From Ignavibacteriota bacterium (GTDB lineage Bacteria > Bacteroidota > Ignavibacteria > UBA10030 > UBA6906), in contig CAWEHG010000009.1 of the NCBI GenBank assembly GCA_963808715.1, positions 8,257 through 72,256 on the forward strand: a DNA stretch of 64,000 nucleotides. Reading direction: 5' to 3'. How positions within the stretch are numbered: position 1 is the stretch's first letter; each line of letters begins with the position of its first letter. Shown piece by piece: positions 2,470-23,841 of this stretch. The notes under the pieces were generated by a model. The model worked only from the letters and a program-made list of their open reading frames with translations, searched no databases and was not told where the DNA came from. The position numbers and the translations under genes were made by a program.

Positions 2470-3519
2470 ATGACTTCACGAGAACGCTGGCTGGCACTTC
2501 TTGCCGGGGAGAAACCCGACCGCATCCCGACGGACTACTGGGCCACGGACGAGGTGACCGAGCGCCTCCAGCGGGAACTCCGTTGTCCGACGCTGGAGGA
2601 CCTCTACACCACACTGAACATCGACGGCGTCCTGAAGATCTTCCCCAGACGGACCGTCGAGCATTTTCCAGGGGATCCGCGCGCGGACATCTGGGGGATC
2701 AGGCGGAAAGCGGTCCAGTACGGCACCGGATCGTATGACGAATTCGATTCCCACCCCCTCGAGGCGGTGTCCACGGTCGAGGAGATCCACAAGTTCCCCT
2801 GGCCGAAGGCGGCGGATCACGATTTCGACAGCTTCCGCAGGGAGATCGAACGGGCCCCGCATCACCGGATGATCCGTTCCGGGGAGTATGAGCCGTTCCT
2901 CCTCTACTGCGCCATGCGGGGGATCGAGCTCGCCATGATGGACCTGCTGGCAGAGCCGGAGATCGTCACCACCGCGCTCAAGTACATTTTCGACTACTAC
3001 TACGAGCTCAACGCGCGGATCTTCGAGATCGGACACGGGAAGATCGACGTATTCTATCTTGCGGAGGATCTCGGGGGGCAGAGCAGCCTGCTGTTCCGCG
3101 TCGAACAGATCCGGAAGTATTTCATTCCGAACCAGCTGAAGATGGCCGACCTGGCGCGGAGCCATGGCGTGCACGTCTTCTATCATACCGACGGCTCGGC
3201 GCGGGATATTCTGCCCGATCTGATCGACACGGTGGGGATCGAGGTCCTGAACCCGATCCAGTGGCGCTGCCCGGGGATGGAACGGGAAGGGCTGGTGCGC
3301 GATTTCGGGAAGAAGGTGATCTTCCACGGCGCGATGGACAACCAGCAGACGCTCCCGTTCGGCACGGTGGAAGACGTCCGGGCGGAAGTTCTGGAGAACC
3401 TGCAGATCTTTTCGGGCGCGCGCTGGATCTGCGCCCCCTGCCACAATCTTCAGCCGGTGAGCCCCACGGCGAACATCGTGGCGATGTACGAGACGATCCA
3501 CGAGCACGGCACATTGTGA
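2470..3519 (+). CDS. URO-D (uroporphyrinogen decarboxylase) fold protein, MtaA/MT-I-like methyltransferase candidate, paralogue 1
   Basis: Intact 349-aa track ORF. Family-style blocks PDRIPTDYWA, FYLAEDLGGQ, VFYHTDGSARDILPDLIDTVGIEVLNPIQ, CAPCHNLQP. Immediately upstream of a corrinoid protein gene. Confidence 0.75.
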   Translation: MTSRERWLALLAGEKPDRIPTDYWATDEVTERLQRELRCPTLEDLYTTLNIDGVLKIFPRRTVEHFPGDPRADIWGIRRKAVQYGTGSYDEFDSHPLEAVSTVEEIHKFPWPKAADHDFDSFRREIERAPHHRMIRSGEYEPFLLYCAMRGIELAMMDLLAEPEIVTTALKYIFDYYYELNARIFEIGHGKIDVFYLAEDLGGQSSLLFRVEQIRKYFIPNQLKMADLARSHGVHVFYHTDGSARDILPDLIDTVGIEVLNPIQWRCPGMEREGLVRDFGKKVIFHGAMDNQQTLPFGTVEDVRAEVLENLQIFSGARWICAPCHNLQPVSPTANIVAMYETIHEHGTL

Positions 3520-3547
3520 ACAACGACAGCACCCACACCAGGAGGCC

Positions 3548-4189
3548 ATGACCATGGCGGATTTGCAGCAGCTGCACGACGCGATCCTGAACGGTAACTT
3601 CAAGCTTGCGCGCGAGGTGACGGAAAAGGCGCTGGCCGAGAAGGTCGACCCGCAGAAACTCGTCCACGACTACATGATCCCGGCGATGGACGAGGTCGGA
3701 CGCCGGTACGAAGCGAACGAGTACTTCGTCCCCGAGCTCCTGATCGCCGCACGGGCCATGAAGGCCTCCCTCGAGCTGATCCGGCCCCTGCTGGTCGCCA
3801 GCGGCGCCGAATCGGCGGGACGTGTCGTGATCGGCACGGTGAAGGGCGACCTGCACGACATCGGCAAGAACCTCGTCGCGGCCATGCTGGAAGGGGCGGG
3901 CTTCGAGGTGATCGACCTCGGCGTCGACGTGTCGGCGGAGAAGTTCGTCGCCGCGGCGAAGGAAAAGAACGCCCACGTCATCGCGATGTCGGCCCTCCTG
4001 ACCACGACGATGGGGTCCATGAAGACCACGATCGAAGCGATGAAGTCGTCCGGACAGCGCGGGCAGTTCAAGGTGATGATCGGCGGGGCTCCGGTCACGC
4101 AGAAATACGCCGACGAGATCGGGGCCGACGGCTACAGCAACAACGCGAACGCCGCGGTGGCCCTGGCGCGGAAGCTGGTCGCCGCCTGA
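3548..4189 (+). CDS. Methyltransferase cognate corrinoid (B12-binding) protein
   Basis: Intact 213-aa ORF with DxHxxG signature GDLHDIGKN, then SALLTTT and MIGGAP. The N-terminal helical cap resembles MtaC/MtbC-type carriers. AGGAGG lies only 2 nt before ATG 3548, so ATG 3554 is an alternative start. Confidence 0.85.
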   Translation: MTMADLQQLHDAILNGNFKLAREVTEKALAEKVDPQKLVHDYMIPAMDEVGRRYEANEYFVPELLIAARAMKASLELIRPLLVASGAESAGRVVIGTVKGDLHDIGKNLVAAMLEGAGFEVIDLGVDVSAEKFVAAAKEKNAHVIAMSALLTTTMGSMKTTIEAMKSSGQRGQFKVMIGGAPVTQKYADEIGADGYSNNANAAVALARKLVAA

Positions 4190-4191
4190 CC

Positions 4192-5068
4192 ATGACCGGA
4201 TTGAAGGAGATCCTCGCCGGCGCTCCGGTCCTCCTGGACGGCGCGTGGGGAACCCAGCTGCAGTCTCTCGGGCTTCCCACCGGCGACGTTCCGGATGCGT
4301 GGAACCTTCTCCGGCCCGCCGCCGTGAAGGAGGTGGCCCGTCGGTACGTCGACGCGGGGAGCGCGGTCATCCTGACCAACACCTTCCGTGGGAACCCCAT
4401 CTCGCTCGCGGGGTTCGGGCTGGCCGACCGGATGGAGGAGATCAACCGGGCCGGCGTAAGGCTCTCCCGCGAGGCCGCGGGAGACAGGGCCAGGGTCTTC
4501 GCCTCGATCGGCCCGAGCGGCAAGATGCTGATGAGCGACGAGGTCACCGAGGCGGACCTGCGCGCGGCCTTCGAAGCACAGGCCGGGGCGCTGGCGGCGG
4601 AAGGGGCCGACGCTCTGGTGATCGAGACGATGAGCGATCTGGAGGAGGCCACGATCGCTGTCCGCGCCGCGAAACAGACGGGACTGCCGGTCGTCGCCAG
4701 CATGGTGTTCGATTCCGGCAAGGACCACGACCGGACCATGATGGGCTCCACGCCCGAGCAGGTGGCCGTCGCGCTCGAACGAGGCCGGCGCCGACGTCAT
4801 CGGCGCCAACTGCGGCCTCGGGATGGACGGGTACGTCCCCGTGGCACGGAGGCTGCGCGCGGCGACCGACCGGCCGGTCTGGATCAAACCGAACGCCGGA
4901 CTCCCGGAGATGATCGCCGGCATGGTGCGTTACAACACCACCCCGGAGCAGTTCGCCTCCTATGCCCCGGCGCTCGCGTCGATGGGGATCTCGTTCATCG
5001 GCGGGTGCTGCGGCACGACACCGGAGTTCATCCGTGCGCTCGCGCGGACGCTGGGGCGGCAGCCGTGA
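4192..5068 (+). CDS. Homocysteine S-methyltransferase domain protein (MetH N-terminal-like), one frameshift
   Basis: LLDGAWGTQL, ILTNTF and the zinc motif FIGGCCGTTPEFI. The body is in track ORF 4192..5823 and the tail in ORF 4823..5068. One extra base near 4783 turns ALERAGADVIGANCGLG into ALERGRRRRHRRQLRPRDG. Stop TGA 5066-5068. Confidence 0.75.
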
Positions 5069-5823
5069 CCCCGCGAAAATTCCGGCTGATCAGCTGCGAG
5101 GTCCTCTACCGCGAACTGTGCCACACCGTCGCGTCGTCGCCCCACCAGATCGACGTGGGTTTCCTTCCCAAGGGGCTGCACGATATCGGCAGCGCCGGCA
5201 TGGTGGAGCGCCTGCAGTCCGCCGTCGATGCGGTGCCCCCGTCGTCGTACGACGCGATCCTGCTCGGCTACGGCCTCTGCAACAACGGCATCGCCGGTCT
5301 GCGCGCACGCCACACCCCCCTGGTCGTCCCGAGGGCGCACGATTGCATGACCCTCTTCTTCGGCAGCCGCGCGCGCTACACCGAGTTCTTCACCGACAAC
5401 CCCGGGACCTACTTCTTCACCAGCGGGTGGCTCGAGCGTGGGGAGGCCTCCGGCGAGCTCCGGCAGATCTCCATTCAGCATCAGACCGGCATGGACGCCG
5501 ACTATGAGGAACTCGTGAAGAAATACGGCGAGGACAACGCCCGGTTCCTCTACGATCAGCTCTGCGACCATACCAAGCACTACCGGCAGGTCACCTTCAT
5601 CGACATGGGCATCGGGCCGCAGGAACAGTTCCAAGCCATGGCGGAACAGAAGGCCGCCGACCGCGGGTGGAAGTTCACGTGCGCCCGCGGCGACCTGCGC
5701 CTGCTCCGGGACCTGGTGCTCGGGGAATGGAACGCGGAGGAATTCCTCGTCGTTCCCCCGGGCCAGCGGATCGCCGTCTCCTACGACGACGGGATCGTCA
5801 CAACCGAACCGGCGGACGGATGA
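5065..5823 (+). CDS. DUF1638 domain protein (accessory protein of corrinoid methyltransferase clusters)
   Basis: GTG 5065 overlaps the upstream stop (GTGA). RLISCEVLYRE, LLGYGLCNNG, VVPRAHDCMTLFFGS resemble DUF1638 as I remember it. The track shows it only as the 3' part of the false fusion ORF 4192..5823. Confidence 0.6.
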   Translation: MTPRKFRLISCEVLYRELCHTVASSPHQIDVGFLPKGLHDIGSAGMVERLQSAVDAVPPSSYDAILLGYGLCNNGIAGLRARHTPLVVPRAHDCMTLFFGSRARYTEFFTDNPGTYFFTSGWLERGEASGELRQISIQHQTGMDADYEELVKKYGEDNARFLYDQLCDHTKHYRQVTFIDMGIGPQEQFQAMAEQKAADRGWKFTCARGDLRLLRDLVLGEWNAEEFLVVPPGQRIAVSYDDGIVTTEPADG

Positions 5824-7332
5824 GCGTCACGATCACCCTCAGGCCCCTGGGGGCTTCGTTCGAGGTCCCCGAAGGGTCCCCCCTGCAGGACCATCTCTTT
5901 GCCTACGGCGTGGAATTCCCCTGCGGCGGCCGCGGCCGCTGCAAGGGGTGCAGGGTCCGCGTCGCCGACGGGACCCTCCCGGTCACCGCTCCCCAGCGGC
6001 AGATGCTCTCCGCGGAAGAGCTCGCTGCCGGATGGCGGCTGGCCTGCCAGTGCTCGGCGACCTCAGGACCTCACCCTGGAGCTGGCGCAGTGGGAAGCCG
6101 CGATCCTCTCCGACGATTCCCCCCTCTCGTTCCATCCGCGCGACGGCTACGGCATCGCCATCGATGTCGGAACCACGACGATCGTCGGCCAGCTGCTCGA
6201 TCTGCGTGAAGGGAAGGTGCTGGCGGTCCGGAGCGCTCTGAACCAGCAGGCACGGTTCGGCGCCGACATCATGAGCAGGGTAGGCTTCGCAGTGGCCGAA
6301 CACGGGCAGGAACAACTGGTCCGCTCGATCCGCACGCAGACGGGGAGACTGGTCGCCGAGCTGTTGGCCGCCGCCTCGGTTCCGGCGGCCGGCATCGCAG
6401 AAGTGATCCTCGTCGGCAACACCGTCATGCACCATCTCTTTTGCGATCACGACCTGACCCCCCTGTCGGCGTACCCTTTCGAATCCGCCACGCTGGGGGA
6501 GGCCCGCTTCGCCGCGGCGGACCTCGGATGGGACCTCCGCCCGGAGGCAAGCGTCCGTTTCCTCTCCTGCATCGGCAGCTTCGTCGGCAGCGACATCCTC
6601 GCCGGGATCGTGGCCACCCGGCTCCACGAGCAGGAGTCGATCGTCGGACTGGTGGACCTGGGGACCAACGGCGAGATCGTCCTCGGAAACCGCCACCGCA
6701 TGATCTGCACCTCCACGGCCGCGGGACCTGCGTTCGAGGGGGCCCGGATCTCCATGGGAATGCGGGCCTCAACAGGCGCCATATCGGAGGTCCACCGCAA
6801 CGGCGGAACACTGGTCTGCCACGTGCTCGGGAACGTGGCACCCCGCGGGATCTGCGGCAGCGGACTCGTGGATGCGGCCGCCGGGCTCCTGGATCTCGGG
6901 ACGGTTCTCCCGAGCGGACGGATGCCCGGAGGTGATACGATCCTGGCGGAGCCCGTGCGGATCACCCCCACGGACATCCGCGAGTTGCAGCTCGCCAAAG
7001 GGGCCATCGCCGCCGGCGTCCGCCTGCTCTCGAGGGAACTTGGCACAAGCGCTGCAGCGATCGGGCGAATGTCGCTCGCCGGAGCGTTCGGCAACTATGT
7101 GAGTGTGACCAGTGCCCGCAGGATCGGGCTCTTGAACCTGCCGGCGGACGTCATCGTACCGGCGGGGAACACCGCGCTCCACGGGGCAAAACTTGCGTTG
7201 TTCGCTCCTTCGGAGCTTTTTAACGCGATCGCGGCCCGCGTCCAGCACGTCGGGCTCAGCGAGCTCCCCGATTTCCAGGATGTGTATGCCGAAGAGATGG
7301 GCTTTCCAATCACAGACGGAACTCCCCCATGA
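5820..7332 (+). CDS. Reductive activator of corrinoid enzymes (RACE; 2Fe-2S ferredoxin + ASKHA/DUF4445 ATPase), one frameshift
   Basis: ATG 5820 overlaps the upstream TGA (ATGA). N-terminal CGGRGRCKGCRV ferredoxin motif, then IAIDVGTTT, LVDLGTNGEIV, TSTAAGPAFEG. A frame break near 6055-6070 joins track ORFs 5667..6209 and 5899..7332. Confidence 0.8.
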
Positions 7333-8321
7333 GCAGACTCCACGAGCACCTCATCGCTTCGCCTCACAGGCTGGCCATGCCGGTCCTCTCATTCCCCGGA
7401 GGCCAGCTCGCCGGGCGCTCCGTCCGCGAGATGGTCACCGATCCCGCCGCCCAGGTGGAAGTCCAGCAGGCTCTTCACCGAAAATACGGCACGGCGTTCC
7501 TGCTCTCCGCCATGGACCTGAGCGCGGAGGCCGAGGAGTTCGGCGCCTCCATCCTGCTCAGCGACGATGAGATCCCGAGCGTCACGGGCCGCAGGGTGAC
7601 CGACCGCGCCGGGATCGACCAGCTCCGTGTCCCCGCCGTCGGGGGGAAACGCACCGCGGTCTATCTCGAGACCGTACGCCGGCTGGTGGCCGCTTCGCCG
7701 GGTGTCCCGGTGCTGGGCGGTATGATCGGGCCGTTCTCGCTGGCCGGACGGTTGTTCGGCGTCAGCGAGGCACTGCTCGAGACCGCCGTGGATGCCGAGA
7801 CCATGCACGCGCTGATCGACAAGGCCACGACCTTCCTCCTGGCCTACGCCGCAGAATTCAAGAAGGCCGGCGCCTGGGGAGTCATCGTCGCCGAACCGAC
7901 GGCGGGACTGATGTCCCCCCCGGCAGCGGCGGAGTTTTCCTCTCCCTACGTCCGGAGGATCATCGAGTCAGTGACCGACGACCGTTTCGAGATCATTCTG
8001 CACAACTGCGGCGCGCGTCTCCCCCACCTGAAGGCCAGCCTGCAGTCCGGCGCACGTATCCTCCATTTCGGCAAGCCGATGGATATCGTCGCGGCCCTTT
8101 CCGAGGTGAGCCACGACGTGGTCCTGTGCGGGAACCTCGATCCTTCCGAGGTGTTCGTCGGGTCCACCCCGGCGGAGGTTCGCTCCGCCACCGGCAGTCT
8201 GCTGGCGGCAACAGCCTCCAGGAGGAATTTCGTGATCTCCTCGGGCTGCGACGTTCCCCCGAACGCAACCCCCGCGAATATCGAGGCGTTCTTCAAGGCG
8301 GTCGAAGCACATCAACGGTAG
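7329..8321 (+). CDS. URO-D fold protein, MtaA/MtbA-like methyltransferase candidate, paralogue 2
   Basis: Intact 330-aa ORF. ATG 7329 overlaps the RACE stop (ATGA). Blocks MDLSAEAEEFG, IGPFSLAGRL, IVAEPTAGL, ILHNCG, ISSGCDVPP. TAG stop. Confidence 0.75.
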   Translation: MSRLHEHLIASPHRLAMPVLSFPGGQLAGRSVREMVTDPAAQVEVQQALHRKYGTAFLLSAMDLSAEAEEFGASILLSDDEIPSVTGRRVTDRAGIDQLRVPAVGGKRTAVYLETVRRLVAASPGVPVLGGMIGPFSLAGRLFGVSEALLETAVDAETMHALIDKATTFLLAYAAEFKKAGAWGVIVAEPTAGLMSPPAAAEFSSPYVRRIIESVTDDRFEIILHNCGARLPHLKASLQSGARILHFGKPMDIVAALSEVSHDVVLCGNLDPSEVFVGSTPAEVRSATGSLLAATASRRNFVISSGCDVPPNATPANIEAFFKAVEAHQR

Positions 8322-9522: not shown

Positions 9523-9526
9523 GCGG

Positions 9527-10366: not shown

Positions 10367-10379
10367 CGATATCGCCCGT

Positions 10380-15279: not shown

Positions 15280-17604
15280 CTACCGTTTTGACGGCGACTT
15301 GAACCCCGGGACCCTCCACTGAAAGTCGGGATCCACGTAGGGTTCGTCGTTCTCGTGTCCCTGCATGAGTGCGATCTTCCTCCGGAGCTGGTCGGCGAAG
15401 TTCCCGTGGTAGTAGATGAAGGTGGTCTCCCCGACGTCCGAGAAGATCATCCACGGGGTCCGTGAGCGTTCTGCGTGTGCCAGAAGCGCCTTCGTGTTCT
15501 CGATCTCGTCGAGCACCATCTGCCGGAGGATCTCGCGGCATTTCTTCTTTGTTGACTCGTCGCGCGACTCCAGGTAGTTGTGCACCCCCGCGATCCACGC
15601 GGTCACGTTCCGCTGGTTGCGGTACCAGCAGAGCATCGCCACGTACCGGTCGTGGAGGTCCTGCGCTGCGGCCTCCCCCTTGCCGCCCCGGGCGCGCGCC
15701 AGAAGTGCGGCGGAACGGTCGTGCGCCTGCTGCATCACCGGCATGACGTTCTCGTTGATCATGGAAAGACATCGCATCGCGTCGTCCGGCTGGATCAGGT
15801 CGAACCCGACGTCGTACCGGAAGTCGACCCGGCAACGGTTGTGCGGAGGAGCCAGAAGGAACTCCTCATAGTATCGCCGGTCCTCCTCGGAGATCTTTTC
15901 GATGTCGGGGACGATCGGGCGGACGAACAGCCGGTACCAGACCCCCCAGCCGGAATAGATCTGCACCGGGACCGGGAAGGCCCTGTAGGCGTCGTCCGAC
16001 AGGTGCCACAACTGGACCAGCTCCGGGGCGAGCTCCGGGCCGATCCACTCCGCCGCTTTCGAAGCCACGAACCGGTCGTACGACAGTCCCGGATCGGCCT
16101 GGAACGCCCTCAGCAGCTCTTCGTTGATGTTGAAGGGTGTCAGGGAACGCGGGGTCGTGCCGCCGGTGTAGGCCAGCGTCGATACGGACTGCCGGGCCAT
16201 GGCGACGAGCTTCTCGTGCACCAGTCGCGGGAACGGAACGCCCAGCAACGGCTCATGGTTCCAGACGGAGCCGCCGGAGAAGTAGACGTCCGTTTCAGCC
16301 CCTTTGGTCCGGATCTGATCCATGACCGTCTTCTCTGCCGGATCGAACCCGTTGAACAGGGCCGTGCCGAGCGTGGCTTTTCGTTCCGGGTATCGGGGAT
16401 GCTTGTACTCTACCTCCCATCCCCGGGAGACCAGCGAACCGGTTTCCACGTCGATCCCGTCCTCCAGCTGGGCCCACAGGTATTTGTGTTCCGCGACGAA
16501 GGCCTCCAGGCGGAGCAGTGTACGGAACTTCGGGTTGACCTTGCGGCCCGCGTCGCGCAGGACCTTGTGGAAGCGGATCAGGTTGTTCGCGGCCGACTCG
16601 GCGATCTCGGTGTCCCCTTTCCACTCGCGGATGACGTAGCCCCCCCCGTTCCGTCCGACGTACAACGAGCTCGTGTACTCGAAGCCGGCGCCGCTGTCGT
16701 TGGACCAGATGGCGATGAAGTCCAGCAGAGGGACCTCCCGCACGAGGTTCTCCATCAGCTCGGCGTAGTGTTCCCGTACCACCGGATGGGCGATGGAAAG
16801 GTTGTACCGCGGATGCCAGCTCCGGATGGGATGATCCACCCTCGCCCCCCGGAGCATGGGATACCGCTCCAGCAGCGCGTCCGGAACGGATCTCGGCTCG
16901 AAGCAGGTGATCCCGGCCGAGAGGCCGTACTTCTCGGCCAGCGCCGCGTTCGTCTTCAGGAAATTCAGGTTCGCCTGAAGGTAGTCGCTGTCATAGTACC
17001 CCCGGTTCAGGCGGCTGGAGACGAACTGGTCGAGCGCGGGGCAGTAGGTATAGAACCTGTGGAGCACTTCTCCGACGGGGCCGCGCTCGAAGGGGACCGC
17101 AAAGGCGAGACCGTTCACTTCGGCGTGTGAGAACCCGAGTCGGGCGAGGTTCCGGATATGTTCTTCCCGGTCGAAATCCCGGAGGGTCCGGTTGTGCATC
17201 GTCAGGAAGCTGTCGTACGAAGGGCGGACCCGCGGGAATGCCGGCGTGATCGTTTTCCCCTGGCGGAACTCCTCCACCGGCAGGTCGATCCATTCTTCGA
17301 TCGCCGAACTCCACGTCCGGAAGAGGAGATGTGGGGCGGACGCGAGGATCTCGATCCCCCCTCCGGGGAGCAGCCGGACGATCCCCCACCCGTTCGGGCC
17401 GCGCAGGGCCGGGTGCTCGGGAGCGGCACCGGTCTGGACGGCGATACGAACGCCCGTGGCGGGCAGCGGTCCGCCCGTTCCGGGCGTCGCCCGGGGAGCC
17501 CAGCCCCCCCTCAGTTCTGACGCAACGGTCTGCTCCACCCGCGGACCGCCGGCGGAGGTGTGGATCGTCGTGACCGTGGAGAAGAATTCCCTAAGTGTTG
17601 GCAT
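15280..17604 (-). CDS. Large cytoplasmic protein of unknown family (family X, intact copy)
   Basis: Intact 774-aa ORF with AGGGAG 8 nt before ATG 17604 and no signal peptide. Shares long blocks with the broken copy at 59703-61916 (RGARVDHP, NDSGxGFE, SSLYxGRNGG, IREWK). No named family recognised. Confidence 0.7.
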   Translation of the reverse strand: MPTLREFFSTVTTIHTSAGGPRVEQTVASELRGGWAPRATPGTGGPLPATGVRIAVQTGAAPEHPALRGPNGWGIVRLLPGGGIEILASAPHLLFRTWSSAIEEWIDLPVEEFRQGKTITPAFPRVRPSYDSFLTMHNRTLRDFDREEHIRNLARLGFSHAEVNGLAFAVPFERGPVGEVLHRFYTYCPALDQFVSSRLNRGYYDSDYLQANLNFLKTNAALAEKYGLSAGITCFEPRSVPDALLERYPMLRGARVDHPIRSWHPRYNLSIAHPVVREHYAELMENLVREVPLLDFIAIWSNDSGAGFEYTSSLYVGRNGGGYVIREWKGDTEIAESAANNLIRFHKVLRDAGRKVNPKFRTLLRLEAFVAEHKYLWAQLEDGIDVETGSLVSRGWEVEYKHPRYPERKATLGTALFNGFDPAEKTVMDQIRTKGAETDVYFSGGSVWNHEPLLGVPFPRLVHEKLVAMARQSVSTLAYTGGTTPRSLTPFNINEELLRAFQADPGLSYDRFVASKAAEWIGPELAPELVQLWHLSDDAYRAFPVPVQIYSGWGVWYRLFVRPIVPDIEKISEEDRRYYEEFLLAPPHNRCRVDFRYDVGFDLIQPDDAMRCLSMINENVMPVMQQAHDRSAALLARARGGKGEAAAQDLHDRYVAMLCWYRNQRNVTAWIAGVHNYLESRDESTKKKCREILRQMVLDEIENTKALLAHAERSRTPWMIFSDVGETTFIYYHGNFADQLRRKIALMQGHENDEPYVDPDFQWRVPGFKSPSKR

Positions 17605-17658
17605 AGAATAACTCCCTGGTGTCGTGAGACCGTGAGACGTAGTGTGTTGGTATGAGTT

Positions 17659-18675
17659 CTATTTTCCTGTCACTGCTTCTTTCGCCGCGAGCAACACCTC
17701 CGTCGGGGTGCCCAGAGGGACGACGCCCGTTCCGAGGATGAATCCCGGATACCCTCCGGCGGCCGCAACTTCTGCCACCGCCCTGCGGTGCACCTCTTCC
17801 GGCCGATCGGTGAGGAATCCTGTCGGGTCGAGGCTTCTTCTGAAGGCCCGGCCCGCCCGTCTGCAGCGCTCGAGAAACGGCGCCAGTGGCGTCCGAAAAT
17901 CGCACAAGATATTGTTCGCTCCCGTTTCCAGATAGGCGTCGAGGATCGGAAGCGTGTTCCCGCCGATGATCAACGGTACGTGTTTCACCCCCTCCCGGTG
18001 GAGGAGATCGATCAGCTGCCGCGCGGGCTCGATCGCGAGAGCGCGGTACGAAGCCGGCGAGATGACCTCCGGGGAAGCGTGGGAATCATAGATGACCACG
18101 CCGCATCCCCTCCTGGCGAATGCCCGCGCGTAGGCGGCGAGCACACCGACGCAGAATCCCATCAGTTCGCGGACGACATCGGGTTCGCTGCGGACGGCCA
18201 TCAGGAGGTTCTCGGCCCCCATCACGCCCGCTGCCATGGAGAAGGGGCCGCTGAGCGCGCCGCGGACGACGGTCTGTCGGCCGATCGCCCGCTCCACCCG
18301 TTCCGCGGCATGAAGGAACAGGGGCATACGCCCGTCCACTTCCGGATCCGGTACGCGCAAAGCACTGACAGGGGCTCCCTCCGCCAGGACCTCTCCGCCG
18401 GGGAGCAGAGACGGGATCCCGGGATCGTCGCCATCCGGATAGTGCACCCGCGCCCCCGCGGCTTCTGCCTCCACGTTGTACGGATCGACCCCCACGACGA
18501 TCGCATCCGCCTGCAGCTCCTCGAATTCCCGAAGCGTGGCCTGCACCAGCAGATCCGCGTCGCGGCAGAGGCGTGAAGGGACGCTTCCGACGAACCAGGC
18601 CTTGTGTTCGAGCACCGCCGGTACGAACGGGATCCGGTCGGGCTTGCGGCCGTCGAGGACATCCAGCAATCTCAT
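17659..18675 (-). CDS. URO-D fold protein, paralogue 3
   Basis: ATG 18675 (MRLLDVLDGRKPDRIPFVP). Blocks SGPFSMAAGVMG, VVIYDSHASPEVISP, LIIGGNT, FILGTGVVP. The track fuses it to the upstream kinase (ORF 17659..19704). Confidence 0.75.
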   Translation of the reverse strand: MRLLDVLDGRKPDRIPFVPAVLEHKAWFVGSVPSRLCRDADLLVQATLREFEELQADAIVVGVDPYNVEAEAAGARVHYPDGDDPGIPSLLPGGEVLAEGAPVSALRVPDPEVDGRMPLFLHAAERVERAIGRQTVVRGALSGPFSMAAGVMGAENLLMAVRSEPDVVRELMGFCVGVLAAYARAFARRGCGVVIYDSHASPEVISPASYRALAIEPARQLIDLLHREGVKHVPLIIGGNTLPILDAYLETGANNILCDFRTPLAPFLERCRRAGRAFRRSLDPTGFLTDRPEEVHRRAVAEVAAAGGYPGFILGTGVVPLGTPTEVLLAAKEAVTGK

Positions 18676-19611
18676 TGCAGAGGCCCCCGTTGTTCCACCA
18701 GAACTCCTCCTTCCAGGGCGGCGATCCCGGCGCTCGAGGCGCAAGAGACCTCCCACCTCTGCTGCATTGGCGGCCCCAGCGGCCGCCCCCCGCACGAGAG
18801 CGCGGGCGAAACTCTCCCCTGCCTCGAGCGACGCCAGAAAGCCGGCGATCATGGAGTCGCCGGACCCCGTGGCGTTCACCGGACGCACCGGGGGCGGAAC
18901 GATCTTCCACCAGTCTGTCCCATCGGTCGCGTAGCACGGTCGCGGGCCGTCAGTGATGATGGCAGAGCGGATCCCTATCCCCACGAACCGCCGGAGCGCC
19001 ATTCTGAATTCCTCGTCGGTTTCCAGCGTCCCGCCGAACGTCTGCCGGAACTCATCCGCATTGACCTTGACCATTTCCGGCAGCGCCTCCACCCCCAGCC
19101 GGAACGTTTTCCCGTAGGAATCCAGAGCGGAGGCCTTTCCGGCCCGCCGGGCGGCGCCGATGATCCGGGCGTAGACGTCGTCGGTCGCCGCGCAGGGCGA
19201 GCTCCCGCAACAGACCACCCACCGGGCTCCGGGGAAGAGGGCAACACACTTCGCCACCAGAGCGTCCGCCTCGGCCGACGTCACGGTGTGGGGCGGTTCG
19301 AAGATCGCCGTCCAGGTGCCGTCCGGTTCCCGGTAGGTCACCCCCTCGCGCGTGGCGGAGGCGACCTCGACGAAATCGTGCGGGATCCCTTCCGCGGAGA
19401 GCAGATCCGCCAGCATTTCACCCACCGGTCCGCCCCAGCATCCCGTCGCCACTGTCGGCACGCCGAGCAGGTGCAGCTGGCGCGCGACGTTCACCCCCTT
19501 GCCGCCCACCACCATGCCTACGTGGGTCGCCCGGTGGGTCCTCCCCCGCGTGAGGTTCTCCACCTCGACCGTCTTGTCGAGCATCGGGTTGAGCGTGACC
19601 GTCAGGATCAT
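18672..19611 (-). CDS. PfkB-family hexose-phosphate kinase (1-phosphofructokinase/tagatose-6-P kinase type), probable frameshift near 3' end
   Basis: ATG 19611 overlaps the aldolase stop (ATGA). MILTVTLNPMLDKT, GGKGVNVARQL, NATGSGDSMIAGF. Shifting one base near 18750 gives ..AGIAALEGGVLVEQRGPLQ-TGA, and this TGA (18672-18674) overlaps ATG 18675. Confidence 0.7.
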
Positions 19612-20439
19612 CGCAGCAGTTTCAGGGCCGAAGCCACCGTTGCCTCTTCGTGGACCACCGCGCAGAGGGCGGCGATCATCTTCTCCATGCGCGGATGCTG
19701 CCACACGTTCCGTCCGATGATGACGCCGTGGGCGCCTGCCTCCACCGTGTCGTGCGCCAGGCGCAGGAGGTTTTCGTCGGTGCTTTTCATCGGCGGACCG
19801 CCTGCCACGACCACCCGCGCGCCGGCGGCCGAATCGACCACCGAGCGGAAGCCGGCAACGGTCCCCACGAACCGGGTCTTCACCACTTCCGCCCCGGCTT
19901 CCACACCGATCCTGACCACCTCCGCGGTCTCGCGGACAGGATCGACGGCCTTCCCCGAGCGCTTGAAGATCTCGGTCCCGAAATGGTTGTTGAGAAGGCT
20001 GGGGGCGATGATCTCGGCGACGAGCGGGACCCCCAGGTCATCGGCCTCCGCCGCCGTCTTTCCCAGGCGGATCATGGACTCCGACTCGATCGGCGTTCCG
20101 AGGAACGTGAAGACGATCATCGCGTCAGCGCCAAGGGCGAGTCCCTGCCGGACCGTGTACATCTCCTGGTAGTCGGTGGGCTTGACCACGTACTTCGTGA
20201 ATCCCCCGTCGATCCTGAGCATGATGCCCAGGTCTCCGGCCGCCGGGGCGACGTTCTTCAGGATCCCCGGCGTCACCAGGATCCCGTCGGCCTTCGTCCG
20301 GGCGATCCGTTCGGTCAGAGTGAACGGGTCCTCGATCCCGGGAACGGGCCCGGAAAAAGAGCCGTGGTCGAACGGGATGATCACCACTCGTTGGTTCTTC
20401 CAGATCTTCTGCAGGCGCAGCTGTTTTCCGGTGATGCAT
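19608..20439 (-). CDS. Class I aldolase, DhnA/LsrF (DeoC/LacD-like) family, frameshift just after start
   Basis: Body is track ORF 19608..20387 (VVIIPFDHG, LRIDGG, VVKTRFVG, GRNVWQH). The conserved N-terminus TGKQLRLQKIWKNQR has no in-frame start. ATG 20439 (GAGGAA 6 nt upstream) is one base out of frame, so an indel lies near 20428. Confidence 0.65.
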
Positions 20440-20460: not shown

Positions 20461-22777
20461 TCAGTGATTGACCTCTTGATCCAACGCCTTCAGTTCTCGG
20501 TTTTCACCACGTCTTCCCAGAGCCTCCACTTCGAGAACCCCACCCGCGGCGGGGTCCCGTCGAGCTGCAGGGAATGCGAATTCGGGAGAGCGCCGACCAG
20601 CGTGTTTCCCACGGTGCGAGATCTTCAGGAAGTTCGAGCAGGCGTACCAGAGGGTTCCGGGTTCCTGCCTCGCGCACAGGAAGTACCCGTCCGTCTCGAA
20701 ATCGCCGAACGAGACCTTCCCGAGATCGTACAGGGCCCGTGGACGGATGTTCTCCCGCGCCAGTTCCATCTCCAGATCGATCCGCGCATAGATCGTCCAG
20801 CGGCTCTTTCCCGAAACCAGTTCGAGCGCCAGCGCGCGCGAGGGAGCGCTTACCGGAAGCAGCCGGACGGACGGGAGTGATGCCGGGAGCTTCGCGGAGC
20901 GGTCGTGCGGCACCAGCAGGGTCACGAAGACCTCATGGTCGCCGGCCTTATACTGGCTTGCGATGGATTGGTAGACGGCCGTTTCCTGGAGACCGTGCCG
21001 GCTGATCGGTTCCACGCTGTCGACCTTGGCGTAGGTCTCGGGGAAGCAGACCGCCAGCGATCGGTCGCGCGGGAAGACGTACCCGGGAAGCGTATCCGTG
21101 GCGACGTCGTACCAGTGTTCGCCCCGGGAAAGGATCTTTCCGGCATGCCAGAAATTCGTGAACGTGAAGTAGTCGGAGCGGAGGATCTTCACGCCGTCGA
21201 TCACCACGAAACAACCGGGTTCCTTCACGTAGACGACGATCCGGTCCCAGCGGTACCCCAGCGCCTCGTCCTCGACGCGGGTCCGGCTCATATCCGCCTC
21301 CCGGGTCTTCAGGAAATCGACCTCTGGCCGTTTGCACCGGCCTGTAGGCTCCGGAGTTCCGCGCGAACTCGAGCGGCGATTGCGCGGGGTCCCGTTTGTT
21401 CAACCGGACCACCAGCCGGTTGTGGAAATAGTCCTGTCGCCAGGCGCCGTACTTCCCGCTCGGCAGGCCGTCACGGTACCCCGCATCGTGCAGGAGCAGC
21501 GACCCCCGGTCCATCAGCGAGACGATGCTGTTCTCGTCCGCGTGGCCGTGGTGCATCTTTTCTTCCTCCACGGAGATGGTGTTGCGCAGGTAGGTCCGAT
21601 CCAGGAGTCCGCCGTCCCCCTCGTCGCGGTAGTTGACCAGAAGGTATGTGCTGGTCGGGTTCCCAGCCGTTCCGGAACACCACCTTCTTGCCGATGACGT
21701 CATCCAGCACCTCCTGGCTGAGCGACGTCGGCCGGGCCGGGCGTGACCGATTCGTCGGTCCAGCGGTAGGCATCGGAGAGGTGGTAGGCATCCCCCACGC
21801 TGAATCCGGCTCCTGGCCGGCGGGCGGCTGCAAGGACCGACGCCGCGGCCCATTTCCATTCGGGGTGCTTGAAGACCGCCGCTCCCTTTTCGAAGAAGGC
21901 GACCATCCGCAGTCCCGCCGCGGACGACTGCCAGCCGGCGTCTCCGTAGTCCGGGATGGTGCCGGAGGGTCCGATCAGTTTCGTGTAGAACTCGAAGTAG
22001 TACCGGACGAACGCGGACGAGTACACTTCCGGGTGCCCGGCCGCTTCGGCGTACGAGAAGAGCGCATGCAGCCAGACCGGGTTGTAGTTCGAGGCATCCT
22101 CGATCTCCCAGTGACCGAGGTTGTCCATCGCGATGACCCGGGCCATCTGCCGCCAGGCCGCGGCGCGGGGATGCTCGGGAAGCGCCATCGCCGCATACTG
22201 AAGCGCCTCCGCCCGTAGCATCGCCCGGTTGTGACCTCCCCACTCGGGGAACCGGAAGATGAAATCCACGCTCTGCGCCAGGTCCCGTTCGATCTTCTCG
22301 CGCTGGGCGGCGGTCATCACCCCGCTGCCGCGGATCCGGAGATATGCCCTGGCATAGGGAGGAAGGAAGAAGAAGTTGCTGAGCGCGGGAACACCGTCCG
22401 CATACTCGGCGCGGGAAGCCGCGAACCCTTTCGGGAGGATCTCCCGCAGGTCTCCGTAGGTCGCCAGCAGGGTCGCGGCCCGCTCGGCGTAGTCGCGCTG
22501 GCCGGTCTGCTCGTACAGGAATCCCAGCGTGGCCGCGAGATAGATCGGGTGGGCCGGGGCATCGTACCCCCAGAGAATGTTGGGCTTCGAGGTCTTCTTC
22601 CACTGCTCCACGATCCCGGGATTCTGCTTCCATCCCTTCTTCCGCGGCCTTGACGATCTCCTGGAGGTAGACCTCCTTCTGCGCGAACGCGGCCGCAGGC
22701 AGCAGAAGGAGCGCCAGGACGGCCCTCGCGAACAACGAACACACTGGAGCGCTGGCGAACCCGGGGACAGCATTCAT
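20461..22777 (-). pseudogene. Heparinase II/III-like polysaccharide lyase family protein 1, Sec signal, reading frame broken at least 4 times as sequenced
   Basis: ATG 22777 (MNAVPGFASAPVCSLFARAVLALLLLPAAAFAQ) overlaps the upstream TGA. Pieces lie in track ORFs 20948..23557, 21700..22773, 21471..21833 and 20461..21291, with breaks near 22640, 21720, 21650 and 21300. HHGHADENSIVSL motif. An alternative C-terminus ..VGNTLVGALPNSHSLQLDGTPPRVGFSKWRLWEDVVKTEN ends at 20490. Confidence 0.65.
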
Positions 22778-23841
22778 GATGTAACTCCCATGTCGTGGTG
22801 ATAGACGTTTCTCTCGTCGAGCATCGTGAGGTAGTTCTCGACCGGCACATAACTGGGGACCGAATTGCCCGCACCGAGCGCGTACCGCCCGCGCGCGCCG
22901 CACGTTTCCAGCAACAGGCGCGTCTGCGCGCGAACCTGCGCAGGAGTACCGCCCGAGAGGATGTTCAGGTCCAGCCCCCCGAGCACGGCGATGCTGTCGC
23001 CGTAGGTCTTCTGGAACTCCTGGACAGGCATGATGGCGTCCTCGAACGAGTGTTTCCCGTCGATCCCGACCGTATCGATCAGGTCGGTCATGATCGCGGC
23101 GAGGTTTCCGCACGAGTGGAGGAAATAGGGCAAACCGTGCTCGTGCGCAAGAGCGGCGAAGCGCGCGTGCCACGGCAGCGTGTATTCCCGGAGCTTCGCC
23201 GGCGAGATGATCGTGGCGGTTCTGTAGCCCATGTCGTCGCCAGGGAAGACCACCGCCAGCCGGTCGAGCTGGACCAGGTGGCGGTAGAACCCCAGCATCA
23301 GCTCTCCGAGCCTGTCGGCGACCGCCCGGACCAGCGCCGGATCCTCGGCGAGCGCGTAGGACAATCCTTCGACCGACATGATCCAGGAGAGGTGTTCGAA
23401 GACACCGCCGCCGTGACACGAGATCAGCCCCATCCCCTCGGGCAGATGGGCGTTCAGATACTCGAACGGGAAAAAGTCGAACTCCTCGACCTTCGGCCAG
23501 GGATACCGTTCGAAGTCGTGCCAGCTCGTGATCGTCCCGTGGGAGCTGTCCGTCCACTCGCGGTCCTTGGCGGATCCGGGGGAAGCGTCCGGAGCGATCT
23601 GGAGCCGGCGCGGCAACGGGAGCATCTCTTCGAACCGGACAAAATCGTATCCCATCCCGTGCCAGAAGGCGATGAAGTTGTCGAGGTATACGCCGAGGCG
23701 TTTCCGGTCGGTGACCCCGGGGGCCGGGCGGTCCACCCAGACGCGGCCGAGCAGATCGCCGAGGACGGGTTTCATGACCACGTCATCCACGATGTACTCG
23801 ATGAGCGGGACGTAGGGGGTCCGCTGATCCCCGCGCAGCAC
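22774..23841 (-). CDS. URO-D fold protein, paralogue 4
   Basis: 355-aa track ORF. Blocks FVRFEEM, VFPGDDMGYRT, PYFLHSCGNLAAIMTDLIDTVGIDGKHSFED, ALGAGNSVP. The GTG start is uncertain: the upstream in-frame PDIDRFLR looks coding and ATGs at 23898 and 23886 are out of frame. Confidence 0.7.
   Translation of the reverse strand: MLRGDQRTPYVPLIEYIVDDVVMKPVLGDLLGRVWVDRPAPGVTDRKRLGVYLDNFIAFWHGMGYDFVRFEEMLPLPRRLQIAPDASPGSAKDREWTDSSHGTITSWHDFERYPWPKVEEFDFFPFEYLNAHLPEGMGLISCHGGGVFEHLSWIMSVEGLSYALAEDPALVRAVADRLGELMLGFYRHLVQLDRLAVVFPGDDMGYRTATIISPAKLREYTLPWHARFAALAHEHGLPYFLHSCGNLAAIMTDLIDTVGIDGKHSFEDAIMPVQEFQKTYGDSIAVLGGLDLNILSGGTPAQVRAQTRLLLETCGARGRYALGAGNSVPSYVPVENYLTMLDERNVYHHDMGVTS

Follow-up and report, generated by a model that had tools for sequence, protein, structure and literature searches.

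The cassette and its surroundings

Between positions 2470 and 8321 of the window, by which we mean the whole 64-kb stretch of DNA analysed, lie six plus-strand genes (Table 1). ORF coordinates and the DNA confirm the order and the 4-nt start-stop overlaps of the original prediction (GTGA at 5065-5068, ATGA at 5820-5823 and 7329-7332), and both overlaps that join the DUF1638 gene to its neighbours are also kept in locus L003. Pfam bears out every domain that had been assigned, and the cassette conforms to the logic of a substrate:corrinoid methyltransferase (MT-I), a corrinoid carrier, an MT-II and a reductive activase (RACE).

Table 1. Features of the cassette and of the neighbouring part of the window
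Feature	Position	Strand	Support
URO-D1, divergent URO-D-fold protein, 349 aa, proposed substrate:corrinoid MT-I	2470..3519	+	Pfam URO-D 1.4e-16
Corrinoid (B12) carrier, cap and Rossmann domain	3548..4189	+	Pfam B12-binding_2 9e-24, B12-binding 4e-31
Stand-alone homocysteine S-methyltransferase (Hcy-MT; MetH module-1 type), proposed methyl-corrinoid:homocysteine MT-II	4192..5068	+	Pfam S-methyl_trans, both fragments
DUF1638 protein	5065..5823	+	Pfam DUF1638 6.6e-36
RACo/RamA-type ATP-dependent reductive activase	5820..7332	+	Pfam Fer2, Raco_middle 5e-48, RACo_C_ter 7e-61
URO-D2, MtaA-like methyltransferase	7329..8321	+	Pfam URO-D 8e-56
GH88-like hydrolase	10380-11768	-	Pfam; PDB unsaturated glucuronyl hydrolase 8e-9
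SDR	11805-~12593	-	Pfam
Nit2-like CN_hydrolase	12602-~13500	-	Pfam; PDB Nit2 1e-13
SSF symporter	13513-15279	-	Pfam
774-aa protein without assignment	in run 15280..20387	-	
URO-D3, without metal ligands	17659-18690	-	Pfam URO-D 2.7e-36
PfkB sugar kinase	~18690-19704	-	Pfam PfkB 2.6e-41
DeoC/LacD aldolase	19608-20387	-	Pfam DeoC 2.8e-23
URO-D4, His-x-Cys ... Asn	22774..23841	-	Pfam URO-D 1.3e-16; NCBIfam MtaA/CmuA 4.7e-13

The carrier reads DLHDIG in translation, an instance of the DxHxxG motif; it matches NCBIfam MtgC/MtbC-type corrinoid proteins at 1e-55 to 1e-64, all below cutoffs, and is 78-79 % identical to its orthologues in L002 and L003. Hcy-MT has both zinc-ligand motifs, GANCG and GGCCGT. 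The activase combines a 2Fe-2S ferredoxin domain with the RACo middle and ASKHA C-terminal domains, and scores 5.5e-90 against AcsV and 1e-38 against RamA in NCBIfam. The DUF1638 protein is presumed to serve B12 reactivation. As had been claimed, the MetH-N-terminal-type Hcy-MT is the sole recognisable acceptor-side enzyme, and a pterin-binding domain turned up neither in the cassette nor in any other segment of the window that was scanned. Neither a SAM nor a B12 riboswitch is present, and no homocysteine-regenerating route was seen here.

The surroundings are more mixed than the near-exclusive glycan degradation that was first described. Glycan genes are indeed present (GH88-like, heparinase II/III-like, GH38 and BNR), but so are many other families: SDR, CN_hydrolase, SSF symporters, sugar kinases, aldolase, FAA hydrolase, amidohydrolase, aminotransferase and M20 peptidase. 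The PfkB and DeoC genes adjoin URO-D3, and URO-D4 adjoins a ROK kinase (1e-40). Unannotated ORFs at 20461-22773, beside URO-D4, may be lyase fragments.

Frame breaks in two genes

Although order and overlaps stand, the six genes are not all intact as sequenced, a point overlooked earlier. By tblastn the Hcy-MT gene passes from frame 1 (4192-4776) to frame 2 (4778-5068), owing to one surplus C, at 4780. The activase gene passes from frame 3 (5820-~6065) to frame 1 (to 7332) by a +1 shift near 6063-6066. Deleting one base per gene restores proteins of 291 aa (Hcy-MT, with GANCG and GGCCGT retained) and 503 aa (activase).

Is the cassette decaying in this organism, with real frameshifts and a relay that no longer functions? 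The reading frame is broken in two of the six genes, homopolymer runs occur at neither break, and the GH38 gene, also in this window, is broken up into fragments. We nevertheless judge decay improbable. About 43 stop-less frame breaks are spread across the window, a rate at which 2.2-3.9 breaks would be expected in the cassette, where 2 are observed; one gene that is otherwise conserved has +1 and -1 events paired at a distance of 330 nt. This pattern is the expected product of indel-type assembly error. Conservation is similar on either side of the breaks (64-67 % identity downstream, 70 % upstream), and an alignment of 1,521 nt to the intact relative L087, at 94 % identity, has no gap other than the extra C. 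The genes are intact in relatives at 94-97 % identity, the intact 291-aa Hcy-MT orthologue P0121 being 97 % identical, and Hcy-MT and RACo are also intact in L002 and L003. Because stop-less breaks abound throughout the window and the closest relatives are intact, both breaks are most likely assembly indels rather than biology.

The URO-D-fold proteins

The concern that the URO-D paralogues might be HemE can be set aside, since the MtaA/CmuA models score best for all four, and URO-D1 and URO-D4 do not match the HemE model of NCBIfam. URO-D2 scores 4e-33 against MtaA/CmuA and 4.5e-16 against HemE; in a residue-level alignment its His225/Cys227/Cys307 matches the H, C and C of MtaA (4ay7), and this zinc triad is invariant in 7 orthologues. 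Like MtaA, then, URO-D2 has a His/Cys/Cys site of the S/Se type.

URO-D1 is more divergent. Its Pfam match covers the C-terminal half only, and in NCBIfam only MtaA/CmuA models match (6e-08). The top Foldseek match of its AF2 model (pLDDT 86) is MtaA 4ay7, with an E of 8.6e-13 and a TM of 0.65. Whereas MtaA has His/Cys/Cys, URO-D1 places His239/Asp241/His325 in the corresponding columns, as defined by a weak profile alignment (E 0.004), and His/Asp/His is found in all orthologues examined. By the published rule, His-Cys-Cys marks S-type enzymes, and in O-type enzymes a carboxylate or a non-ligand stands in the place of Cys (PMC10418091); the metal site of URO-D1 thus appears to be oxygen-preferring. 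URO-D1 has 3,578 homologues; its family occurs in 352 species genomes, the best 80 of which are all MAGs, and it is unusually conserved, at 56-79 % across phyla. It sits within a radiation of ~350-aa paralogues (341 clusters at 50 % identity), as expected for substrate-diversified MT-I enzymes. In two assemblies a URO-D1-like domain (34 % identity, FHTDG...APSH) is fused to GH32.

Conservation of the arrangement

By cassette core we mean URO-D1 adjoined by Hcy-MT and by at least one of the corrinoid protein and RACo. About 20 species-level genomes share this core, and every compared locus that shows all six genes has them in the order of the window, so the arrangement is not due to chance. URO-D1 is directly upstream of a corrinoid gene in ~24 of 80 loci from at least three lineages, including the Lentisphaerae loci L056 and L059. 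One MAG has two full cassettes (L006 and L020), and some cassettes (L030, L031 and L059) are without URO-D2. L085 carries Hcy-MT, DUF1638, an S-type URO-D and RACo but no URO-D1.

The expectation that the cassette neighbours CAZyme genes is borne out in part. The unsaturated-uronate module (GH88-like, SDR, CN_hydrolase, SSF) follows it in 12 of the 19 type A loci whose downstream sequence is visible. The 11 type B loci, all of a single clade, carry a rhamnose operon of FGGY kinase, RhaA (1e-193), URO-D1, GH78 rhamnosidase, permease and RACo, with URO-D1 between rhamnose isomerase and rhamnosidase and with neither Hcy-MT nor carrier. L056 contains URO-D1, the corrinoid gene, GFO/IDH/MocA, a second URO-D, GH38 and DUF2961. 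Against this, URO-D1 is solitary among housekeeping genes in ~40 loci of Planctomycetota, Anaerolineales and others.

A proposed relay to methionine, and other readings

What might such a cassette do? Our tentative reading, to which we give somewhat less than an even chance, is that the conserved six-gene operon is a corrinoid methyl relay ending in methionine, with a carbohydrate-derived methyl compound as the most likely donor. URO-D1 would take the methyl group off an O-methylated donor and pass it to the Co(I) of the corrinoid protein; the donor would most likely be a methylated deoxy-hexose or uronate, as ether or methyl ester, freed by the neighbouring glycan enzymes. Hcy-MT would then transfer the methyl of CH3-Co(III) to zinc-activated homocysteine, forming methionine, and RACo with DUF1638 would carry out the ATP-driven re-reduction of carrier oxidized to Co(II). 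For URO-D2 the substrate would be a thiol or selenol, and the enzyme would either admit further methyl groups, from methylthiols, or let them out, for instance to sulfide. Gene content and order, domains, ligand residues, conservation and synteny are observed; the direction of flow, the donor and the role of URO-D2 are what we infer. If the relay is as drawn, uncultured glycan-degrading anaerobes would have a B12-dependent conversion of O-methyl groups and homocysteine into methionine.

The sugar donor originally envisaged gains genuine support, though not full support. The rhamnose operon, the uronate module, the GH38 of L056, the GH32 fusion and PfkB/DeoC count for a carbohydrate link, as does the O-type site; confinement of the rhamnose arrangement to one clade and the ~40 solitary loci count against it. 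The leaving group of an aliphatic methyl ether is far poorer than a phenolate, no corrinoid enzyme is known to demethylate such an ether, and our literature search for one found none. A catabolic methyl flux onto homocysteine would also require a route that regenerates homocysteine, which counts against the relay.

The donor may be methyl-THF or an aryl methyl ether rather than a sugar. If URO-D1 were the MT-I for methoxy-aromatics derived from lignin or flavonoids, such as the aglycones that GH78 rhamnosidases free from rutinosides, the remaining relay would be unchanged. GH78 enzymes frequently deglycosylate methoxylated flavonoid rhamnosides, and the type B operon includes a GH78 gene; CE15 glucuronoyl esterases target lignin-carbohydrate ester bonds, and a CE15 gene neighbours the L085 set. 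The O-type ligands fit an aromatic donor equally well, and the habitats of the genomes with URO-D1 (fen, peat, sediment and soil) are rich in methoxy-aromatics. Phenyl methyl ethers are established substrates of URO-D-fold MT-I enzymes in acetogens and Desulfitobacterium (PMC10418091; PMC3727330). Even so we think an aromatic donor unlikely: URO-D1 is embedded between rhaA and GH78 with no adjacent aromatic-catabolic genes, no aromatic-ring catabolic genes occur in any locus examined, a paralogue is fused to a GH32 fructosidase, and L056 offers a GH38/GFO context. CdmB, a solved O-/halo-demethylase, has no detectable sequence similarity to URO-D1 and is matched only by URO-D2, weakly. With methyl-THF as donor, URO-D1 would replace the pterin module, and the cassette would be a complete, fully split housekeeping MetH with incidental glycan neighbours. 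The strong conservation of URO-D1 between phyla would suit such a central role, as would the ~40 housekeeping-type contexts and its position as first gene, beside the carrier, of a cassette that otherwise equals split MetH. In L059 URO-D1 has MtaB on one side and the corrinoid gene on the other, the MtaA-like slot expected of an MT-II, which counts against it as an MT-I. The fold matches include MetE (E 2e-4), which is distantly related in structure and binds methyl-folate, and Kountz & Balskus consider it possible that some MtaA-like protein is a hitherto unrecognised H4folate methyltransferase. Against these points, the invariant His/Asp/His has no obvious use for N5-methyl-THF; a THF methyltransferase with the URO-D fold has no precedent that we could find, and acetogen MtaA has a mass of 29.7 kDa, which points to the smaller pterin type, though its source paper gives no fold. 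The two cassettes in one MAG, the type B URO-D1 without Hcy-MT or carrier, the GH32 fusion and the lack of SAM and B12 riboswitches also make a housekeeping MetH quite unlikely.

Two further readings would move URO-D1 out of the relay. In a salvage of methylated sulfur or selenium compounds, as proposed for the mlp clusters, URO-D2 would be the donor enzyme, demethylating methanethiol, DMS, methylthio-alcohols or methylselenides onto the carrier, Hcy-MT would make methionine, and URO-D1 would be separate or accessory. The invariant, MtaA-aligned triad of URO-D2 is consistent with this, as are L085 and the IF-2B/MtnA-family genes that adjoin URO-D1 in 2 loci; Type 1 mlp clusters, moreover, comprise MtaA-like protein, corrinoid protein and RACE without a THF methyltransferase (PMC10418091). 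The carrier-adjacent, most conserved partner is however URO-D1, some cassettes are without URO-D2, the window shows no genes of sulfur metabolism, and mlp clusters occur mainly in Firmicutes (PMC10418091); we regard salvage as improbable. Alternatively, URO-D1 could be no methyltransferase but a metal-dependent TIM-barrel enzyme that converts sugars, such as an isomerase or epimerase, found beside corrinoid genes without a functional tie to them. Sugar isomerases and epimerases, too, typically have a His/Asp/His site, there are weak fold matches to psicose/ribulose epimerases (E ~4e-3, TM 0.3-0.4), and neither the rhamnose operon nor the GH32 fusion has an adjacent carrier. The corrinoid gene immediately downstream in ~24 loci, the RACo of type B loci, and MtaA as top fold match with NCBIfam matches solely to MtaA/CmuA models make this highly improbable.

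Comparison with known systems

The relay to methionine that we favour shares much with described systems. Type 1 mlp clusters have in common with it the MtaA-like protein, corrinoid protein and RACE; mlp clusters lack Hcy-MT and DUF1638 (PMC10418091). Another such system is the split methionine synthase (Price 2018), with stand-alone PF02574, corrinoid protein, DUF1638 and a RamA-like activase; in Phaeobacter DUF1638 is needed for methionine synthesis, and the pterin subunit is encoded elsewhere (PMC5764234). The absence of a pterin-binding domain from the cassette is therefore no proof of folate independence, and such a methyltransferase may lie elsewhere in the genome, as in Phaeobacter. A corrinoid route from methyl sugars to methionine had been put forward as undescribed. 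Parts of it are on record: the acceptor half equals the genetically validated split methionine synthase, including the requirement for DUF1638 and a RamA-like protein (PMC5764234; PMC12478193), and MttB-type MT-I enzymes feed such modules from non-folate donors (PMC9324843; PMC12478193). What is new is the donor side, where URO-D1 is proposed, from its sequence, as a candidate MT-I.

Gene content of the cassette

The ORF listing and Pfam place the six plus-strand genes that we call the cassette where the original prediction had them and in the same order. The start-stop overlaps, GTGA at 5065 and ATGA at both 5820 and 7329, agree with the ORF coordinates and the DNA, and the domain assignments were borne out by profile-HMM searches, with URO-D, B12-binding, S-methyl_trans, DUF1638 and RACo domains all found by Pfam. 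The same holds for the lack of a pterin-binding domain: no PF00809 subunit was found, either in the cassette or in those segments of the window that were scanned, and neither the cassette nor any of the related loci examined has a pterin-binding MT-II (an acceptor-side methyl-corrinoid:THF methyltransferase). The observation was real but incomplete, in that two out-of-frame genes had been overlooked. The reconstructed homocysteine methyltransferase, Hcy-MT, keeps its zinc ligands and aligns to MetH residues 7-311 (1e-49). A search for sigma-70 promoters and internal terminators gave nothing informative. The GC content of the window is 65 %.

Features of the window and of loci in relatives (L numbers) discussed in the text
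Feature	Position	Strand	Annotation
URO-D#1	2470-3519	+	Pfam URO-D, E 1.4e-16, C-terminal half of the model only
Cor (corrinoid carrier)	3548-4189	+	cap and B12-binding domains (PF02607, PF02310); DLHDIG as DxHxxG, from translation
Hcy-MT	4192-5068	+	Pfam S-methyl_trans (PF02574) on both frame fragments
DUF1638	5065-5823	+	PF07796, E 6.6e-36
RACo activase	5820-7332	+	Fer2, Raco_middle, RACo_C_ter; NCBIfam AcsV and RamA
URO-D#2	7329-8321	+	Pfam URO-D, E 8e-56
DUF362 and DUF6599 genes	8347-10487	+	DUF362 with twin-arginine-like leader; between URO-D#2 and GH88-like gene
774-aa protein	15280-17604	-	between URO-D#3 and SSF symporter
URO-D#3	17659-18690	-	
PfkB gene with URO-D#3	17659-19704	-	PfkB stop abuts URO-D#3 start
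URO-D#4	22774-23841	-	
GH38 alpha-mannosidase gene	27148-30250	-	at least five out-of-frame pieces
GH38C	27148-28134	-	
GH38N fragment	29251-29592	-	
PorV-like match	63303-63809	-	weak
C39/Golvesin orthologue	L001:7453-9861		Por_Secre_tail
MtaB-URO-D#1 locus	L059:8574-14236		bacterial MAG, 45 % GC
GH32 fusion	L088:10001-12796		931 aa

Frame breaks

Are the two broken genes a feature of the organism or of the sequence? Hcy-MT reads in frame 1 up to 4776 and its C-terminus, with the GANCG and GGCCGT motifs, in frame 2 from 4778; the activase changes frame near 6065, from 3 to 1, between its ferredoxin and RACo-middle domains. Deletion of one base in each gene restores a 291-aa Hcy-MT and a 503-aa activase. 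By a codon-usage HMM, the 64-kb window holds 43 same-strand, stop-less frame changes, 24 of them flanked by segments of 150 nt or more; such a density predicts 2.2-3.9 breaks for the 5.85 kb of the cassette, and two are observed. Break positions include 1005/1355, 4780, ~6065, 9021/9313, 9775, ~18730 and 27100-30250, and comparison with relatives bore out several of the breaks. Relative to the L001 orthologue, the upstream C39/Golvesin gene shifts by +1 at ~1023 and by -1 at ~1353, the DUF362 and DUF6599 genes downstream of the cassette are also frame-broken, and the PfkB gene has lost its C-terminus to another frame. The window's most heavily broken gene is that for the GH38 alpha-mannosidase.

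Relatives carry intact genes. P0121 is an intact 291-aa Hcy-MT orthologue with 97 % amino-acid identity, and in a DNA comparison with an intact relative (94 % identity, 1,521 nt) the sole gap is an extra C at position 4780, CTCGAA[C]GAGGCC. More distant relatives have intact Hcy-MT proteins of 288-289 aa and RACo proteins of 508-513 aa, and conservation 3' of each break equals that 5' of it. Because breaks occur throughout the window, relatives are intact and conservation continues undiminished past the breaks, both are probably assembly indels rather than biology; very recent inactivation of the cassette in this population is possible. A look-up by exact sequence, with Cor and URO-D#2 from the window, found no independent assembly on record. 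Programmed frameshifting at 4780 or 6065 was rejected, since relatives do without the extra base and some 43 similar breaks are spread across the window. The window seems rich in single-base indels, so that gene calls in it need frame-aware handling.

Identity and spread of the URO-D proteins

All four URO-D paralogues of the window score best on MtaA/CmuA models, and none reaches a curated cutoff. A HemE identity was rejected for them, as the MtaA/CmuA scores are higher and on the HemE model TIGR01464 (cutoff 303 bits) URO-D#2 scores 58.8 and URO-D#3 46, while URO-D#1 and URO-D#4 have no match. On MtaA (4ay7), URO-D#2 matches all three zinc ligands, with ilHnCG on LHICG and sSGCd on APGCG; this His-Cys-Cys triad is invariant in seven orthologues, and the protein scores 115-124 bits on MtaA/MtbA/MtsA-type models against cutoffs of 235-244. 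URO-D#3 lacks all three metal-ligand residues.

URO-D#1 is without the triad, and sequence and profile searches of the PDB gave no match to a solved structure. Its AF2 model (pLDDT 86) has MtaA as best fold match (E 8.6e-13, TM 0.65), and HemE matches at equal TM, so that the fold search cannot tell MtaA-like from HemE-like. In profile-profile and multiple alignments YHTDG falls on the H-x-C motif, with His kept and Cys changed to Asp, and APCHN falls on the G-C motif, with His325 as third ligand; His/Asp/His is present in every URO-D#1 orthologue examined. In this superfamily S-methyltransferases have His-Cys-Cys, and O-methyltransferases swap Cys for carboxylates or non-ligands (Kountz & Balskus, PMC10418091). 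Applied to the aligned ligands, which for URO-D#1 come from a weak profile alignment (E 0.004), this rule would make URO-D#1 an O-type and URO-D#2 an S/Se-type enzyme.

URO-D#1, the part of the cassette that is most distinctive, has 3,578 homologues at E <= 1e-5, the best 120 of which are typically 349 aa long and 65-79 % identical. Among genomes scanned at one per species, 352 carry it, and the 80 best are without exception MAGs, from Bacteroidota/Ignavibacteriota, Planctomycetota, Lentisphaerota/Victivallales, Verrucomicrobiota and Anaerolineales, and many of them come from fens, peat, lake sediment or soil, judged by isolate names. An exhaustive search (50 % identity, E <= 1e-30) places it inside a radiation of ~341 clusters of full-length, ~350-aa paralogues. 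One URO-D#1-like paralogue (34 % identical, FHTDG...APSH) carries a fused GH32 exo-inulinase/invertase domain (E 1.3e-64), and gene calls in two assemblies give the identical product. A gene for a PF02574 protein lies ~9 kb from this fusion. Two complete cassettes (L006 and L020) occur in one Bacteroidota MAG, MFD09964.bin.2.229, and two solitary URO-D#1 genes (L042 and L078) in one Planctomycetota MAG.

Gene neighbourhoods

Synteny was compared at 80 loci anchored on URO-D#1. The six genes recur in long MAG contigs, their order unchanged and the 4-nt overlaps at Hcy-MT/DUF1638 and DUF1638/RACo conserved. About 20 loci from Bacteroidota/Ignavibacteriota (type A) have the cassette core, as a rule with all six genes. 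Downstream sequence is visible in 19 type A loci; in 12 of these, as in this window, the cassette is followed by a module made up of a distant relative of GH88 (unsaturated glucuronyl hydrolase, E 8e-9), an SDR, a Nit2-like CN_hydrolase and an SSF symporter. URO-D#2 directly adjoins the GH88-like gene in L006, L008 and L020, without the DUF362/DUF6599 insert of the window.

The 11 type B loci consist of an FGGY kinase, L-rhamnose isomerase (E 1e-193), URO-D#1, GH78 alpha-L-rhamnosidase, an APC permease and RACo. Their URO-D#1 sequences form one clade, so that type B counts as one lineage-level conserved arrangement. The Fer4 protein c135 was considered as a hidden corrinoid carrier in these loci and rejected, as it matches polyferredoxin domains only. 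About 40 loci, mostly Planctomycetota, have a solitary URO-D#1 (type C), flanked mainly by housekeeping families with few sugar genes (pooled Pfam scan, 123 ORFs). In two of them URO-D#1 is flanked by genes of the IF-2B/MtnA family (E 3e-89), to which methylthioribose-1-phosphate isomerase belongs; a link to methionine salvage is possible.

Two further loci stand apart. In the Lentisphaerae locus L056, URO-D#1 and Cor are followed by GFO/IDH/MocA, another URO-D, a full GH38 and DUF2961; the GH38 that adjoins this URO-D#1-Cor pair is intact. In L059, MtaB (E 2.6e-150) directly precedes URO-D#1, Cor, DUF1638 and RACo, and there is no Hcy-MT. MtaB being methanol:cobalamin methyltransferase, L059 is a methanol-linked variant without a canonical MT-II.

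Anchoring on Hcy-MT instead shows the Cor-Hcy-MT pair to be a widespread core with three kinds of setting. The pair stands alone among housekeeping genes in L086 and among sulfatases, GH27 and sugar oxidoreductases in a verrucomicrobial MAG (L084); in L085, Hcy-MT, DUF1638, an S-type URO-D and RACo adjoin a CE15 glucuronoyl esterase, UxaC, a heparinase-type lyase and amidohydrolases. Within the window itself, tblastn found no rhamnose, GH78, MtaB, CE15 or UxaC genes.

Elsewhere in the window, the minus-strand run that holds the conserved module also holds a PfkB kinase and a DeoC aldolase, with URO-D#3 behind them, and URO-D#4 has as neighbours a ROK kinase and some unannotated ORFs, possibly fragments of lyases. 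For the 774-aa protein, Pfam, NCBIfam and the PDB gave no match; the type A locus L031 has a similar partial ORF, and the protein may be a glycan-active enzyme not yet described. The PorV-like match and the Por_Secre_tail of the C39/Golvesin orthologue suggest a type IX secretion system, in keeping with a host of Bacteroidota/Ignavibacteriota type in spite of the 65 % GC.

Mechanism and methyl donor

How might the cassette work? URO-D#1 would act as an O-type, donor-side methyltransferase (MT-I) loading Cor, and the PF02574 protein as MT-II, passing the methyl group on to form methionine; RACo and DUF1638 would be the repair system of the carrier, and URO-D#2 a thiol- or selenol-directed side entry or exit. 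An exit to sulfide has a precedent in sulfide-dependent O-demethylation to methanethiol and DMS (Lomans 2001, as cited in PMC5607357). A corrinoid relay to methionine is the best-supported reading, and we regard it as likely.

A different role for URO-D#1, on the folate side, would make the cassette a complete MetH equivalent. No precedent for this was found, and the Rfam scan of the window detected neither a SAM nor a cobalamin riboswitch, which would mark housekeeping methionine regulation, nor any other RNA element; we think such a role improbable. The acetogen MtaA was considered as a precedent for a URO-D-fold THF methyltransferase and set aside, as its 29.7 kDa fits the pterin-binding type by size, though the paper leaves the fold unstated. 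One might also argue against a folate role from the multiplicity of URO-D#1, but the argument is weakened because L019, L025 and L076 have extra copies of no more than 27-30 % identity, which makes these separate families.

If URO-D#1 does load Cor from another donor, what is that donor? The original prediction of an O-methylated sugar gains from synteny and from the fusion, and falls short of proof. A carbohydrate-bound methyl is favoured by the rhamnose operon, the uronate module, the GH38 cluster, the GH32 fusion and the kinase and aldolase neighbours. It is disfavoured by the chemistry of aliphatic ethers, a methyl ester being easier, by type B being a single clade and type C contexts housekeeping, and by the high conservation of URO-D#1 and its MtaA-like position in L059. 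On balance we hold a carbohydrate donor as a tentative proposal with somewhat less than an even chance. Its more specific form, in which URO-D#1 is an O2-independent demethylase using Co(I) and a His/Asp/His Lewis-acid site to pass sugar-bound methyls directly to methionine, is rather doubtful, as are the donors that it envisages, uronate methyl esters or the O-methyl forms of deoxy-hexoses or uronates. The more conservative choice of donor would be aryl methyl ethers, which we consider improbable.

Glycans of plants, algae and microbes commonly contain methylated sugars such as 4-O-methyl-glucuronate, 2-O-methyl-fucose and -xylose, 3-O-methyl-rhamnose and 6-O-methyl-galactose. If sugar demethylation by the cassette is real, anaerobic glycan degraders of peat, soil and sediment would unblock such sugars and harvest their methyl groups, a corrinoid route would fill a gap in anaerobic carbohydrate demethylation, and Co(I) chemistry would extend from phenyl ethers to aliphatic ethers or esters. 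Glycan turnover would be linked to methionine and C1 supply, possibly with methanethiol release via the S-type partner, in carbon-rich anoxic habitats such as the fens and peat that are the source of these MAGs. Whatever the donor, URO-D#1 represents a large, strongly conserved and uncharacterised family (352 species genomes, thousands of metagenomic copies) that plugs into a split methionine synthase whose DUF1638 component is itself unexplained.

Comparison with known systems

The acceptor half has a close counterpart in the split MetH of Phaeobacter inhibens, defined by fitness genetics as PF02574, corrinoid, pterin-binding, Fer2-DUF4445 (RamA-like) and DUF1638 proteins, the components being required for methionine synthesis and the pterin-binding protein being encoded elsewhere (Price et al. 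2018, PMC5764234). The cassette shares the stand-alone PF02574 protein, separate corrinoid protein, DUF1638 and Fer2 plus DUF4445 activase, so that its middle four genes match a described system. The Phaeobacter system differs in having CH3-THF as donor via the pterin protein, no URO-D-fold proteins and an aerobic alphaproteobacterial host; in the window the module is flanked by two URO-D-fold genes, and the segments scanned yielded no pterin protein.

A methyl group from outside folate also has parallels. In Ruegeria pomeroyi MtgBCDE, the corrinoid protein also takes a methyl from an MttB-family glycine betaine methyltransferase (PMC12478193), and Williams et al. (2022, PMC9324843) proposed that clusters of an MttB homologue, Hcy-MT, corrinoid and activation proteins make methionine from an unknown donor. 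As proposed here, an MT-I passes a non-folate methyl to a corrinoid protein that also serves a stand-alone PF02574 protein, with reactivation by RamA and DUF1638. That MT-I, however, belongs to the MttB superfamily (glycine betaine or an unknown amine) rather than to the URO-D fold; Ruegeria also has a pterin methyltransferase (MtgD), and the Williams clusters have a MetH-type SAM activation domain instead of RACo.

The three- and four-component O-demethylases of acetogens and Desulfitobacterium (MtvABC, OdmABCD) share a URO-D-fold, substrate-specific MT-I (a putative one in the cassette), a DxHxxG corrinoid protein and a RACE activase; their MT-I has an O-type metal site, to which that of URO-D#1 may correspond by its ligand columns in two alignments, the profile one weak (E 0.004). 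They differ in using phenyl methyl ethers and a pterin-binding THF MT-II that feeds the Wood-Ljungdahl pathway, whereas Hcy-MT is the only recognisable acceptor enzyme here; between URO-D#1 and CdmB, whose structure is solved, no sequence similarity is detectable. Among systems known from genome mining, the closest are the type 1 mlp clusters, mainly from Firmicutes and proposed for methyl-S/Se compounds, with several MtaA-like proteins, a corrinoid protein, a RACE activase and no THF methyltransferase (Kountz & Balskus, PMC10418091). URO-D#2 shares their His-Cys-Cys, but they lack Hcy-MT and DUF1638, and URO-D#1, of putative O-type, seems to lie far from the MtaA-like clade; type 1 needs both Mlp2 and Mlp3, each with His-Cys-Cys, and the cassette has one such URO-D protein and so falls outside it. 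Methanogen MtaABC and MtsA likewise pair a corrinoid carrier with a URO-D-fold zinc methyltransferase that alkylates a thiol, and MtaB lies by URO-D#1 in L059; their acceptor is coenzyme M, whereas here a PF02574 thiol acceptor enzyme occurs in bacterial hosts (Bacteroidota/Ignavibacteriota-type MAGs).

The 6-O-methyl-D-galactose demethylase of marine bacteria (PMC6292453) removes methyls that block sugar catabolism, as the proposed route would. It is a P450 of unrelated fold and mechanism that depends on O2 and releases formaldehyde, whereas the proposed route would be O2-independent and conserve the methyl. This is the sole carbohydrate demethylation route in the literature searched, which held no anaerobic route and no corrinoid demethylation of methyl sugars. 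The literature searched held no split methionine synthase with URO-D-fold methyltransferases either. The original interpretation is partly right: a split methionine synthase fed from outside folate is already published and the acceptor half is a known system, and what is new to the literature searched is the URO-D-fed version together with the hitherto undescribed URO-D#1 family.
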